IMG/VR virus record: IMGVR_UViG_2531839524_000005
Direction: 5' to 3' (one strand)
Length of the DNA stretch: 34,440 nucleotides
From: a virus
Lineage: Duplodnaviria > Heunggongvirae > Uroviricota > Caudoviricetes
In this document: positions 30,120 through 34,440 of the stretch, one piece after another
How the letters are laid out: every line of letters starts with the position of its first letter
Numbering within the stretch: position 1 is the first letter of the stretch
The notes under the pieces: generated by a model
What the model saw: only the letters and a program-made list of their open reading frames with translations
What the model was told of the DNA's origin: nothing
Databases searched by the model: none
Translations under genes and position numbers: made by a program

Positions 30120-31946
30120 ATGTCTGTAGTGATATCAGGTGCGCTGATTGATGGCGCAGGCATCCCCATGTCCGGATGCCATATTATTCTGAAATCCCGG
30201 GTAAACACCTCAGAAGTGGTGATGCGCACAGTTGCCGACGTGGTGACAGGAAACTGTGGCGAGGACTGTTTTAAGGCGCAGACCGGAAAATATTGCGTAT
30301 ATCTGAAACAGGACTGGCGCGACGAGTACTATGTTGGCGACATTGCTGTATACGACGACTCAAAGCCCGGCACGCTGAACGACTTTCTGACTGCCCTTGA
30401 TGAAGGCGATTTAAAGCCGGATGTAGTGAAACGATTTGAGGAAATGGTGGTGCAGGCACAGCAGAGTGCTGAAATCGCAGCATCATGTGCAGAACAGGCA
30501 GGGCAAATATTAAATAACATCCAGGAGGTTGCAGGGCAGCTTTCCACAGTACGCTTCGAAAATTTTAACGATATTAGCAGGCGGTGTACGACAGCCATGC
30601 TGAAGCTGGAACAACCCGAGGTTGTTAATACATCAATATCTTTAAAAATAAAAGAAAATATCGATTTTAATTATGTCGGTGCAGTTAACGGATATTGCGA
30701 TATTCCTGAACCTGAAAAGTATAAAGTCGAAATGTATGCTTATACAACTGGAGAGTATTTTAACGGCGACGCTAATTTGAATAGTGACGGAACTTTCTAT
30801 TTCAGACGTTGCTGGACGGGAGCAAAACAGTTTCGTCTTATTCGGATTGAGGATAATGCGTGGATCACAACGCTGGAATTTCCGCTGCTCATTCGTAGTT
30901 ACTGGATGCCAGAGGACGCAGATCCTGACGTGATCAGGGTGATGAAAGACCGATGTTACACGTATGACCAGGCGCTGGCAGCACTGGCGTTGATGGTTCA
31001 GCGACATGAAGCTGTGGAAAGATACGTTTCAGGTTTGTGTGCACTTGTTGATGAAAACGGCGGGGTGAAATTTTTTGTTAACAGGCTGTCGGCCATGTCT
31101 TCGCGCGCCTATTATCGACTGGGCAATGCGGCATGGGTTTACTATGCCCTTGCGTTCTATCTGGAGAAATACCCGGACGGAGCACAGGTAAATATTGTTC
31201 GGGCAAAGTTGTTATCTGGCATCAGCTGGCTGGATTCTTTCCTGGTAACCGCCCCTGGTGATTTACGTGAAGGCCTGTATAAAGGCGGCCTTGGTCGTTA
31301 TGTAAATGGCGAATTTGACGCCAGTTTCGTTGCCGAATGGTGCGCACTGGAGCATAACGTTGATATCTGGTTTTTGTTTGAACTGATGGGGAGACTGGAA
31401 TTTGACGGCTTCATTCAACGCGCCGATGCGCTGGCAAAAAGTATCATCAGGGGGTTCTGGATGGAAGAGGAAGGCCGGTTCCGGCAGGGAGTACACCCAA
31501 CCAGTTATGATAACGCGGCGGCTCTTGATCAATCGTCATGGGGCGGGCTGTTTGTAGCGAATATAGACATGGCTAAAGCTGTACGTTGTCGTAAGTATAT
31601 GGGGCGTTTCTTTTTTGGCACCCGCGAAGCCACGGGTTACACACCTTACCACCCCGATTATGGATACAGTGGTCACAGTCGAGGTGTATGGGTGGAAGGG
31701 ACCGCAGGAGTGGCACTTTTTGAGAGAAAGCTTGGAAACGAGGTTACAGCAATGAATCTCATTGCAGCAATGGCACCGCTTCGTGATGAATACGGCTATC
31801 GTGATTCATGCGATGACCCGGCATATGATGTGCTCCCACCCTGGCCATCAACAACAAACACGGCGTGGGTAATCCTGACAGTAAAACCTGATAATTTTTG
31901 GCTGGTAGATTCACCGATCATGGACGTTGGCATGATTCGATACTGA
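30120..31946 (+). CDS. Tailspike / second tail fibre with a glycoside-hydrolase-like C-terminal domain (putative depolymerase)
   Basis: 608 aa. N-terminus MSVVISGALIDGAGIPMSGCHIILKSR resembles prophage tail-fibre N-terminal anchors. C-terminal half is aromatic-rich (WVYYALAFY, WCALEHNVDIWF, DQSSWGGLF), suggestive of an alpha/alpha-toroid glycosidase; unverified. Confidence 0.45.
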   Translation: MSVVISGALIDGAGIPMSGCHIILKSRVNTSEVVMRTVADVVTGNCGEDCFKAQTGKYCVYLKQDWRDEYYVGDIAVYDDSKPGTLNDFLTALDEGDLKPDVVKRFEEMVVQAQQSAEIAASCAEQAGQILNNIQEVAGQLSTVRFENFNDISRRCTTAMLKLEQPEVVNTSISLKIKENIDFNYVGAVNGYCDIPEPEKYKVEMYAYTTGEYFNGDANLNSDGTFYFRRCWTGAKQFRLIRIEDNAWITTLEFPLLIRSYWMPEDADPDVIRVMKDRCYTYDQALAALALMVQRHEAVERYVSGLCALVDENGGVKFFVNRLSAMSSRAYYRLGNAAWVYYALAFYLEKYPDGAQVNIVRAKLLSGISWLDSFLVTAPGDLREGLYKGGLGRYVNGEFDASFVAEWCALEHNVDIWFLFELMGRLEFDGFIQRADALAKSIIRGFWMEEEGRFRQGVHPTSYDNAAALDQSSWGGLFVANIDMAKAVRCRKYMGRFFFGTREATGYTPYHPDYGYSGHSRGVWVEGTAGVALFERKLGNEVTAMNLIAAMAPLRDEYGYRDSCDDPAYDVLPPWPSTTNTAWVILTVKPDNFWLVDSPIMDVGMIRY

Positions 31947-32064
31947 ATCAGGCGCAAGTTGAGCGCAACGATGCGATTTACCAGCGCCAGCGGGAGATGA
32001 AAAGCGAGTTGAGTAATCTGGAGAATTTGAAATCGATTAGAGATCTCAGACTAGATTGATAGAA

Positions 32065-32098
32065 GCCGCGGTTCATTGTATGCAAGAACGAACCGCGG
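32065..32098. repeat. Perfect 10-bp inverted repeat with 15-nt spacer
   Basis: gccgcggttc (32065..32074) and gaaccgcggc (32089..32098); no adjacent T-tract on either strand. Confidence 0.6.
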
Positions 32099-32171
32099 CC
32101 GACTGGTAAACTTTCGATCTGGATGCGCAATTTTCCGGTGATAGATTGAGTGGTTTTAGGACTTTTGGAGT

Positions 32172-32221
32172 GGGGCAAAAATGGGGCAAAACGTTGCAAA
32201 AGGGGCAAAAATGGGGCAAAA
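32172..32221. repeat. Four direct copies of GGGGCAAAA in 11-bp phased pairs
   Basis: Copies at 32172, 32183, 32202 and 32213, with a related ttgcaaaa at 32194; in the noncoding stretch between the last phage gene and the host-like genes. Confidence 0.6.
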
Positions 32222-32514
32222 AAAATGTAGGTTATCGTGATTTATTGTAGTTGTGGATGTGTCTTAACATTCTGAAAAATAAATAAAAATCTTGTGTGTC
32301 AGATAGTTGTAGTTTTTGCCCTTACTTGTTCAGGTTGTATTGTTCTTTCTTACTAATTTCTTGATTTTGCGACATTTAAAAGCGACTCAATTCGTTATAT
32401 GGCATCAGAAGAGTATGCGTCATGCCGGAACGCCCAGCATAAGAAATCTGATATAAAAACTGTGGCGTGTATGGTACGGATTAGAGGGGAAAATGTCAGC
32501 ACATTTGCGAAATG

Positions 32515-32546
32515 AATCAAAAAGCCCGCAGCAATGTGCGGGCGTT
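32515..32546 (-). terminator. Rho-independent terminator for the universal stress protein gene
   Basis: Hairpin gcccgca / tgcgggc with an A-tract on the + strand (T-tract on -), immediately 3' of the stop at 32551. Confidence 0.55.
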
Positions 32547-32550
32547 AGTG

Positions 32551-33066
<516 letters not shown>

Positions 33067-33125: not shown

Positions 33126-34097
33126 TTAGAACTGATAAACCAGACCTAAAGCGACAATATCATCGGTAGAGATGCCGTTGGCAGCGTAGAAACTGTCATC
33201 TTCATCCAACAGGTTGATTTTATAGTCAACATAAGTGGACATGTTTTTATTGAAATAGTAAGTCGCGCCAACATCGGCGTATTTAACCAGATCTTTATCA
33301 TCAACACCTGCCGGGTTGTCTGCACCACCGGCAGCGTGCAGGTCACGGCCTTTAGACATCAGGAAAGAGACTGCCGGACGCAGACCAAAATCAAACTGGT
33401 ACTGTGCAGTGACTTCAAAGTTCTGGGTTTTGTTTGCAACAGCATAATCGCTGTCGCCAAACGGGGTCATATTACGCGTTTCTGAATACATGGTTGCCAG
33501 GTAAATATTGTTAGCATCGTATTTTAGCCCAGCAGTCCACGCGTCTGCTTTATCACCACCCGCCGCAGTATGGTTAACCTGGTCATTGGTGCGGTCAGAA
33601 GAGGTGTATGCCGCACCAGCGCTAAAGCCCATGCCTAAATCATATGTTGTGGAAAGACCCCAGCCGTCACCGTTTTCATGGCGAACATCACGTCCGTTGT
33701 TGGTGCCTTCCTGACCATTACTGGCACCTTCGTTGTTACCTTGATACTGCACCGCGAAGTTCAGACCATTTACCAGACCGAAGAAATCAGTATTACGATA
33801 AGTCGCGACGCCATTGGCTCGACCAGTCATAAAGTTGTCTGCATTGGTATAAGAGTCACCGCCAAATTCAGGCAGCATATCGGTCCAGCCTTCGATGTCG
33901 TACATTACGCCATAATTACGTCCGTAATCGAAAGAACCGTAATCTGCAAATTTCAGTCCGGCAAATGCCAGACGGGTCCATGACTGGTTTTTTGAAGATT
34001 CAGTGTTGTTTGCCTGAATATTGTATTCCCATTGACCGTAGCCAGTAAGTTGATCGTTAATTTGGGTTTCGCCTTTAAAACCCAGACGCGCATAGCT
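33126..34097 (-). pseudogene. OmpC/OmpN-family porin gene, 5'-truncated by an IS10 insertion
   Basis: Frame is open from 34097 to the stop at 33126; translation [25 protein letters not shown]...VALGLVYQF matches general porins including the C-terminal signature. About the first 60 codons are missing on this side of the IS. Confidence 0.75.
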
Positions 34098-34440
34098 CTG
34101 ATGAATCCCCTAATGATTTTTATCAAAATCATTAAGTTAAGGTAGATACACATCTTGTCATATGATCAAATGGTTTCGCCAAAAATCAATAATCAGACAA
34201 CAAAATGTGCGAACTCGATATTTTACACGACTCTCTTTACCAATTCTGCCCCGAATTACACTTAAAACGACTCAACAGCTTAACGTTGGCTTGCCACGCC
34301 TTACTTGACTGTAAAACTCTCACTCTTACCGAACTTGGCCGTAACCTGCCAACCAAAGCGAGAACAAAACATAACATCAAACGAATCGACCGATTGTTAG
34401 GTAATCGTCACCTCCACAAAGAGCGACTCGCTGTATACCG
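34098..34440 (+). mobile_element. IS10 (IS4 family), outside end and 5' part, truncated by the window edge
   Basis: Terminal sequence CTGATGAATCCCCTAATGATTTT... and the following ~340 bp match the IS10 outside end as recalled, including the GATC site in the promoter region. A few differences from my recalled IS10-Right suggest an IS10-Left-like copy. Confidence 0.85.
34205..34440 (+). CDS. IS10 transposase, N-terminal part (partial)
   Basis: ATG at 34205; MCELDILHDSLYQFCPELHLKRLNSLTLACHALLDCKTLTLTELGRNLPTKARTKHNIKRIDRLLGNRHLHKERLAVY matches the IS10 transposase N-terminus as recalled. Confidence 0.85.
   Translation, partial: MCELDILHDSLYQFCPELHLKRLNSLTLACHALLDCKTLTLTELGRNLPTKARTKHNIKRIDRLLGNRHLHKERLAVY

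Follow-up and report, generated by a model that had tools for sequence, protein, structure and literature searches.

A short motif repeated five times just inside the right end of a Rac-like prophage most probably provides arm-type sites for the N-terminal (Arm-DNA-bind_2) domain of the prophage integrase, IntR. We favor this reading of the GGGGCAAAA units because both arms of the attachment site carry the motif, IntR has an arm-binding domain, the motif recurs in the intact attP sites of free phages and at 76 of 80 surveyed integrase loci, and homology among attR sequences is lost at or near the outer boundary of the array. The preliminary description of this DNA had left three choices open, namely arm-type recombinase sites, Xis sites or a regulatory array. 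The first is strengthened by the presence of the motif on both arms and by its linkage to the integrase family, and the second is weakened by a published probe that contains the array and is not shifted by XisR.

The junction itself is the known Rac attR and its overall design is that of λ attP, both of which are ordinary rather than surprising, and no new kind of mechanism is revealed. What the analysis adds is an exact right end for the prophage, a strand-exchange region narrowed to 15 bp, and a concrete, testable candidate for the arm motif, with its layout, of IntR / 933W-type integrases, a family that mobilizes Rac-like prophages as well as several Shiga-toxin phages across the Enterobacterales. 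It may be of use in delimiting prophages and in designing excision and integration assays.

The attR junction at ttcA

The segment of interest, positions 31947-32550 of the window (the whole 34.4-kb stretch of DNA that was analyzed), represents attR of a complete Rac-like prophage that has integrated into the 5' end of ttcA in E. coli. In a comparison with complete E. coli genomes, the segment was 100% identical to strain F9792, and matches to at least part of it were found in 5,404 of 5,426 genomes. Where ttcA is uninterrupted, the match (~100%) starts at window position 32326, with nothing before it; strain 2014C-3075, for example, aligns at 100% from 32326. Matches to K-12 derivatives begin at 32174, inside the first repeat unit, at ~92.6% identity, and the right end of K-12 Rac (pinR-ydfK-ynaM ... 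uspF-ompN) is alignable at that same level, likewise beginning at the first repeat. The features of the junction are as follows.

30120..31946, + strand: last intact phage gene, encoding a 608-aa protein (ORF, F9792 annotation)
31949..32059, + strand: remnant of a DUF4376 tail-fibre-assembly gene, C-terminal 36 aa, a pseudogene (annotated as a partial gene in F9792)
32065..32098, no strand assigned: conserved hairpin with a 10-bp perfect stem and the invariant loop GTATGCAAGAAC
32172..32221, + strand: putative P-arm array, with units r1 at 32172, r2 at 32183, r3 at 32193 (degenerate), r4 at 32202 and r5 at 32213
32222..32325, no strand assigned: P-arm spacer, 70% AT (from AT content and conservation)
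32326..32351, no strand assigned: attR core, an exact match to the 26-bp Rac att sequence TTGTTCAGGTTGTATTGTTCTTTCTT
32326..32375, - strand: displaced native 5' end of ttcA (the 'ttcC' fragment), with its start codon at 32375-32373
32376..32550, - strand: host DNA comprising the orphaned ttcA upstream region and the uspF terminator, also present in prophage-free genomes
32551..32985, - strand: uspF, the first host gene (F9792 annotation, ORF)

The interval between the last phage gene and uspF had been described as about 600 bp of noncoding DNA, and this turns out to be a composite of a gene remnant (31949-32059), the 5' end of ttcA (32326-32375) and host DNA (32376-32550), in addition to the phage sequences discussed below. 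The 608-aa protein has the prophage tail-fibre N-terminal domain (Pfam PF08400, E 1.2e-59), and the DUF4376 remnant shares 70% identity with the intact protein in UMNF18, over residues 153-185 of the latter. On the host side, the orphaned ttcA upstream region contains a promoter-like site at 32499-32471 (- strand), and the uspF terminator lies at 32543-32524 (- strand). An Rfam search of 31800-32700 at E <= 1 returned only a sub-threshold STnc310 match over the uspF terminator, and nothing on the hairpin or the array.

The F9792 prophage is ~46 kb long, and its far end is annotated in the order ttcA - intR - xisR - ralR - recT - recE. There intR-xisR adjoin a hybrid ttcA and, as in the K-12 layout, uspF-ompN flank attR. 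The preliminary description suggested that the uspF-porin neighborhood resembles the right junction of K-12 Rac and that the phage may occupy the same attachment site. Both suggestions hold: uspF and ompN are the flank of K-12 Rac, and the shared site is indicated by the exact 26-bp Rac core, the limits of the empty-site matches and the ttcA-intR-xisR order at the other end. Alignment with an uninterrupted host locus, which had been proposed as a check, places the junction at 32326 and maps the attR core to 32326-32351. The same 26-mer is annotated as an attP feature in the Rac-SA53 record.

We delimited the region of strand exchange with a junction alignment that included attR of five different Rac-like prophages, the empty attB and attL of this prophage. 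Identity between attL and attR is limited to the 15 bp of TTGTTCAGGTTGTAT (32326-32340); the next 11 bp of the attL core differ from attR at three positions (3 of 26 for the core copy as a whole), as in Rac-SA53. As judged from these sequences, strand exchange must be confined to the 15 bp at 32326-32340, because only these are identical at attL and attR.

The repeat array and its candidate ligand

The exact motif GGGGCAAAA occurs on the + strand at 32172, 32183, 32202 and 32213 and nowhere else in the window. These copies make up two identical 20-nt blocks, GGGGCAAAAATGGGGCAAAA, 30 bp apart, and a degenerate unit, GTTGCAAAA, lies between them at 32193, so that five units of the same sense follow each other with start-to-start spacings of 11, 10, 9 and 11 bp. 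The four copies in two 11-bp-phased pairs reported earlier at 32172..32221 are thus confirmed and extended by a fifth, degenerate unit. The array lies 105-154 bp inside the junction, and alignment assigns it to phage DNA, because empty-site genomes match the window only from 32326. The opposite outcome, in which the repeats would belong to host DNA of prophage-free strains, was checked with a negative result: the array is absent there. It is conserved in attR of K-12 Rac, O157, UTAK-6, F637 and SPF_0923, and absent from attB.

The units are short and A-rich, and the identical 20-nt blocks look like the product of a recent duplication, as would be expected of a functionless repeat that arose by chance or by slippage. 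Against such an origin, the GGGGCA hexamer occurs 16 times on the + strand of the window, and the Poisson expectation for four copies within 50 bp is only ~8e-4 over the whole window; the five-unit layout is kept in diverged attR sequences with different flanks; and a phage with an integrase of only 44% identity has the motif on both sides of a different core. These comparative data effectively refute a chance repeat, to which we assign a negligible probability. Coding across the array (a 57-aa ORF is annotated in F637) was also set aside, as the indels of its relatives are not multiples of three.

Outside repeat 1, homology is lost ~30 bp upstream in K-12 Rac and at repeat 1 itself in SPF_0923, a Salmonella prophage end that carries sitABC cargo; beyond these points the sequence of both is unrelated to the window. 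Loss of homology at or near repeat 1 is as expected if this unit is the outermost arm site. Between the array and the core, the AT-rich spacer is where sites for IHF and Xis would be expected. A conserved block within it, GTCAGATAGTTG (32299-32310), resembles an IHF site, and the corresponding position of phage PHB10 matches the IHF consensus exactly. An IHF-consensus scan of the window yielded as many matches as chance would; among them are a site with one mismatch in the spacer and an exact site in the host flank. Beside the core, at 32313-32321, there is an inverted near-copy of the motif, TTTTTGCCC; it was set aside as an additional site because it reads TTTTTACTC in O157-type ends and so is not conserved.

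A search for the motif at the other prophage end, also proposed in the preliminary description, located it in attL, which reads ATGGGGCAAATTGGGGGCAAACTTTGCAAC between the core and the intR stop codon, in the same orientation as the attR array. The units GGGGCAAAT, GGGGCAAAC and TTTGCAAC (L002 11112-11139) form a phased pair plus a degenerate third directly 3' of the intR stop codon, at a distance of 60-87 bp from the core; their spacings of 11 and 10 bp equal those of r1-r3 in attR. The motif is thus found on both arms of the reconstructed attP, and it differs from the core sequence. IntR itself is organized as an Arm-DNA-bind_2 domain (PF12167; residues 5-69, E 1.8e-25) followed by a tyrosine-recombinase domain (PF00589), a domain set shared by the Int proteins of PHB10 and phi367. 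Within residues 1-70, 26 positions are invariant across five integrases that are 43-69% identical to IntR. A PDB sequence search returned relatives of the catalytic domain only, and no solved homologue of the arm-binding domain.

Free phages allow the layout to be viewed in an uninterrupted attP. A phage collection yielded no close (>90%) Rac-like free phage with an intact attP; the entries vB_EcoS-666R9, 683R6, Rac-SA53 and SPF_0923, labelled 'phage', are sections cut from prophages that either stop at host DNA or contain some of it. In PHB10, whose Int is 69% identical to IntR, a ttcA-like core has the motif on both sides: TTTTGCCCC-N6-TGCCCC follows directly after the int stop codon, and beyond the core a ~100-bp spacer leads to TGCCC / TTTGCCCC / TTTTTGCCCC / TTTGCCCC, an array of three exact copies and one truncated copy (TGCCC). 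In the Stx podovirus phi367, with an Int 44% identical to IntR, the 3' end of int itself contains TGCCCC-N6-TGCCCC, at 60-75 bp from the core; a four-copy array spaced by 11, 20 and 11 bp occupies the far side, 120-170 bp from the core and 150-195 bp downstream. Alignment identifies the phi367 core as wrbA, because the phage sequence matches E. coli genomes in two parts that overlap by 17 bp, with 'integrase | wrbA' annotated at one of them. The motif therefore flanks a different core in phi367 at the same distances as in Rac. In Yersinia phage YP3 the P' pair is present, but a P-arm array is not obvious over 450 bp. The arrays observed on the P arm come from three independent attP/attR types, namely Rac-type, PHB10 and phi367.

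The link between motif and integrase was also apparent in a survey of one genome per species, comprising 80 loci whose Int proteins are 42-99% identical to IntR and whose taxa range from Escherichia to Yersinia, Serratia, Pantoea and Enterovibrio. At 76 of these loci, GCCCC-N6-GCCCC is present at the int 3' end with exactly 11-bp spacing and at most one mismatch in total, against a background of 0.002 such pairs per 70 bp; at three of the other four loci there are two copies, again 11 bp apart, with one mismatch each. The motif was not found in one Pantoea locus and one IMG/VR contig. Most IMG/VR contigs end exactly at the int stop codon and are of little use for the arms. At least 41 loci with the exact pair do not adjoin ttcA. 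Together with the arrangement around the wrbA core, these counts tie the motif to the integrase family rather than to the site of integration.

We considered whether the ligand of the array might instead be the excisionase. λ Xis polymerizes on X1-X1.5-X2, and XisR, a DUF1233 protein, could similarly polymerize head to tail on the 10-11-bp-phased units and so bend the P arm. Same-sense units at the spacing of the helical repeat (~10.5 bp) do resemble the site of an excisionase filament, and a DUF1233 excisionase adjoins int in every relative examined; because all of these relatives carry it, co-occurrence cannot separate Int sites from Xis sites. XisR is known to bind a fragment containing attR: the purified protein shifted a 294-bp 'AttR' probe and not a 291-bp 'AttM' control (Liu et al., 2015; PMC4632033). 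When the published primers are mapped on K-12, the AttR probe (L003 1483-1776) includes the array, which speaks for XisR, but so does the AttM probe (L003 1362-1652), which holds the entire array and ends 4 bp before the core. As AttM was unshifted though it holds the array, that experiment implies that the array alone does not bind XisR. This gel-shift assay (PMC4632033) is a single experiment, and its outcome, that the core or the host side is needed, is itself odd. The placement of the motif also counts against XisR, in that it occurs on the int-proximal P' arm as well, at times inside the int ORF. In λ-type sites, the int-proximal arm holds integrase arm sites, and excisionase acts on the int-distal arm only. 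Were the array assigned to XisR, moreover, IntR would have no candidate arm motif despite its clear arm-binding domain. We therefore regard XisR as quite unlikely to be the ligand and IntR as the preferred one.

A further reading treats the repeats as an operator array for a phage or host regulator, acting on read-through from int into ttcA at attL or on the orphaned ttcA promoter at attR. The attL pair does sit in the 52-bp gap between the intR stop codon and the ttcA start, and arm-type sites that double as operators are known for IntS of KplE1 (PMC2951348). When the attL gap was scanned, neither a promoter-like nor a terminator-like site came up, which gives no support for a separate ttcA promoter that overlaps the P' sites; ttcA is for this reason probably co-transcribed with intR at attL. 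The geometry of the repeats is, however, conserved around different cores (ttcA, wrbA and others), and their strict linkage to the int 3' end in the survey points to a recombination module rather than to one promoter. We consider a dedicated operator very unlikely, and any regulatory side-role of IntR binding to its arm sites would be secondary.

The hairpin beyond the array

The perfect 10-bp inverted repeat noted earlier at 32065..32098 is also borne out. Its arms, GCCGCGGTTC (32065-32074) and GAACCGCGGC (32089-32098), are perfect over 10 bp and 92% matched over 13 nt, and as RNA they would form a GC-rich stem of 10-14 bp, or 13-14 bp when folded as the - strand. Among seven variants, 4 of 11 stem pairs have changed on both sides, which none of 500 shuffles achieved; compensatory examples are GGTTC/GAACC to GGCAC/GTGCC and CCGCGG to CCGCAG/CTGCGG.

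The preliminary description had grouped this inverted repeat with the att junction, an assignment that does not survive comparison. The tail-fibre-assembly remnant ends in a stop codon, and the hairpin starts 5 nt beyond it; in UMNF18 it lies directly 3' of the intact tail-fibre-assembly (tfa) gene. It also occurs near the ends of prophages at dusA and pphA/yebW, which have other integrases, and is absent beyond the P arm of PHB10 and in SPF_0923. Because it accompanies other integrases, follows tfa and is missing from PHB10 and SPF_0923, the hairpin belongs on comparative grounds to the late-gene and tail-fibre module, with which it travels, and not to the att/int module.

On the circular phage map, the hairpin lies between the late operon (+ strand) and xis-int (- strand); in the lysogen, the orphaned ttcA promoter region is upstream of it. 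We lean slightly toward a role as a terminator or insulator between convergent transcription units. Such an element would stop late transcription on the + strand. On the - strand, it would stop int/xis transcription while the phage is circular or, in a lysogen, transcripts that read through from the orphaned ttcA promoter. Of the two strands, the - strand has the better T-tract, with TTTTTC in K-12, TTTTAC in O157 and a poor one (TTCTATC) in the window. A simple terminator scan made no call at the hairpin because of its 9-13-nt loop and this poor T-tract. A plain terminator does not explain the invariant loop sequence.

λ tI/sib occupies a comparable position, on the int-distal arm downstream of int. 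By this analogy, the hairpin could be a retroregulator that ends the int transcript, with read-through producing an RNase III target that destabilizes int mRNA in the non-integrated phage only. Like λ tI/sib, it lies beyond the int-distal arm (228-261 bp beyond the core), is downstream of int only in the circular, non-integrated genome, and is separated from int by integration; the covarying stem and the good - strand T-tracts of K-12 and O157 are also compatible with this function. The distribution of the hairpin is not: in contrast to tI/sib, it travels with the tail-fibre-assembly gene and accompanies unrelated integrases (at dusA and near pphA/yebW), and none is present beyond the PHB10 P arm or in SPF_0923. 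The outer extended helix is, in addition, weak on the - strand. A sib-like role is accordingly less likely than that of a terminator or insulator, and we judge it rather unlikely.

A proposed λ-like attP and its relatives

Joining the two ends gives a proposed attP for the excised circle, in which the array would be followed by the ~105-bp AT-rich spacer, the 15-26-bp core, ~60 bp of further sequence, the int-side pair and int. In this model, the P-arm set of two 11-bp-phased pairs with a degenerate unit between them would be bound by the N-domain of IntR. By analogy with λ, protomers held at the core by their catalytic domains would reach these arm sites across bends made by IHF and XisR, and the resulting integrative or excisive intasome would determine which way recombination runs. 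The two P-arm pairs may differ in their use, as P1 and P2 of λ do.

A broader possibility is that 11-bp-phased GGGGCA pairs form a general recognition code for PF12167 integrases, from Rac to the wrbA-type Stx phages. We put this forward tentatively, as a generalization that falls a little short of being probable. It would imply a fixed layout with a single int-side pair and two more pairs across the core, and the latter two could correspond to λ P1 and P2, one serving integration and the other excision. The int-side pair often lies within the int ORF, where it encodes a conserved AP..PQ tail; in such cases a DNA site would dictate the protein tail. If the code is general, the attP, attL and attR sites of a large family, including Stx prophages, would be predictable from sequence alone, and the family would offer a second, independent model of arm-directed intasome assembly. 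In the searchable literature, we found no description of an arm-type motif for IntR or for the integrases of wrbA-type Stx phages.

The closest known system is Rac of K-12, with IntR and XisR/YdaQ (PMC4632033). It shares with this prophage the ttcA target, the 26-bp core, the uspF-ompN flank and the intR-xisR pair, and its five-unit array and spacer align with the window at the identity given above. The two differ in extent, as this prophage is full-size, at ~46 kb with a complete late region, and K-12 Rac is a 23-kb remnant.

The wrbA-type Stx phages (933W / phi367) have an integrase that is 44% identical and has the same domains, along with a DUF1233 excisionase. As in this prophage, their int end carries a GCCCC pair and a 2 x 2 array stands on the other side of the core, with the distances unchanged; the differences are the wrbA core, the motif flanks TGCCCCAAA and a P' pair that is located inside an extended int ORF.

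A similar organization is familiar from λ attP, in which the arm-type sites P1, P2 and P'1-P'3 are bound by the N-domain of Int and are accompanied by sites for IHF, Xis and Fis. The λ arm-type sites were reportedly described by Ross & Landy in 1982 and by Landy in 1989. In both systems, a heterobivalent tyrosine integrase is paired with a repeated motif that is unrelated to the core and is present on both arms, with the distal P-arm sites ~100-155 bp and the P' sites ~55-90 bp from the core. Adjacent sites are ~10-11 bp apart in each, and an AT-rich spacer lies where bending proteins would act. In contrast to λ, the arm-binding domain is PF12167 here rather than PF09003, and the motif is GGGGCA(A)AA rather than of the CAGTCACTAT type. 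The putative copies are also more numerous than in λ; they are arranged as phased pairs (two pairs plus one unit on P, one pair plus one unit on P') and are all in one orientation.

KplE1 (CPS-53) provides a comparison for the attL side, where the arm-type sites of the IntS/TorI system overlap the int promoter (Panis et al., 2010; PMC2951348). As in that cryptic E. coli prophage, the putative arm sites described here occupy a gene-proximal regulatory gap, where integrase binding could affect transcription. The integrase family is a different one, as are the motif, which contains TAAA in KplE1, and the target, which is argW in KplE1; and whereas the KplE1 sites overlap the int promoter, the putative sites of the Rac-like prophage follow the int stop codon.

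Probable arm sites at the integrase end

In more distant integrase relatives, the GCCCC pair on the int side, which in Rac-like prophages belongs to the P' arm, falls within a C-terminal extension of the int open reading frame (comparison loci L013, 2738-2802; L009, 3733-3775; L014, 3727-3763; and many loci of L129-L180). The peptide encoded across the pair, AP..(V/L/M)PQ, is conserved in these relatives. Since the pair forces this peptide, a constraint on the DNA site shows up as protein conservation. No GCCCC motif was found downstream of int in Pantoea sp. alder81 (L109) or in IMG/VR 3300011712_000059 (L090), the integrases of which are ~70% identical to IntR; these two loci may represent rearranged or decayed prophage ends, or true exceptions.

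The stretch between intR and the hybrid ttcA at the attL end of strain F9792 (L002, 11053-11139) contains neither a promoter-like nor a terminator-like site. Thus, ttcA in lysogens is probably transcribed by read-through from intR, with transcription crossing the P' arm sites.

The repeat array, its neighbors and the host flank

The Salmonella 'phage' SPF_0923 (ON032529.1; L100, 2290-2700) was deposited in GenBank as a 'complete phage genome', but the record is an excerpt of a prophage with host uspF/ompN still attached. Its similarity to Rac attR begins exactly at repeat 1, and a sitABC manganese-transporter cargo adjoins the arm-site array. In strain F637 (L005, 1469-1642), the array is spanned by a RefSeq-annotated 'hypothetical protein' of 57 aa (WP_001157925.1), which is probably a spurious gene call in view of the indels that distinguish relatives.

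The 12-nt loop of the nearby hairpin, a putative terminator (GTATGCAAGAAC; window 32077-32088, with homologues in L003-L006 and L017-L019), is almost invariant across seven hairpin variants, the sole change being one C-to-T in UTAK-6, whereas the stems have diverged. A plain terminator leaves this near-invariant loop unexplained.

Beyond the junction, at window 33126-34440, ompN lacks its 5' end, and from ~34084-34098 onwards the sequence is the terminal part of an IS10/ISVsa5-type element (CTGATGAATCCCCTAATG...). The ompN/IS10-type junction was found in none of the complete E. coli genomes in the collection, indicating that the source of the window is closely related to F9792 but is not F9792 itself.

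Other features of the prophage are as follows.

2312-2387, + strand, tRNA-Thr(tgt), prophage-borne, upstream of the lysis region
2391-2465, + strand, tRNA-Gly(tcc), prophage-borne, upstream of the lysis region
25114-26289, + strand, gene for a 391-aa protein matching HSDR_N, the N-terminal domains of type I restriction enzyme R subunits (E 5.6e-14)

The HSDR_N gene, located in the middle of the baseplate and tail gene block, could represent a moron or an insert linked to defence.

XisR binding at attR

In gel shifts with the Rac excisionase XisR, the AttM probe (K-12 Rac attR region, L003, 1362-1652) served as the negative control for binding (Liu et al., 2015; PMC4632033). We find that this probe covers the entire repeat array and the P arm to within 4 bp of the core. 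Core or host-side DNA therefore seems to be needed for XisR to bind attR. Such a need is unusual for an excisionase.
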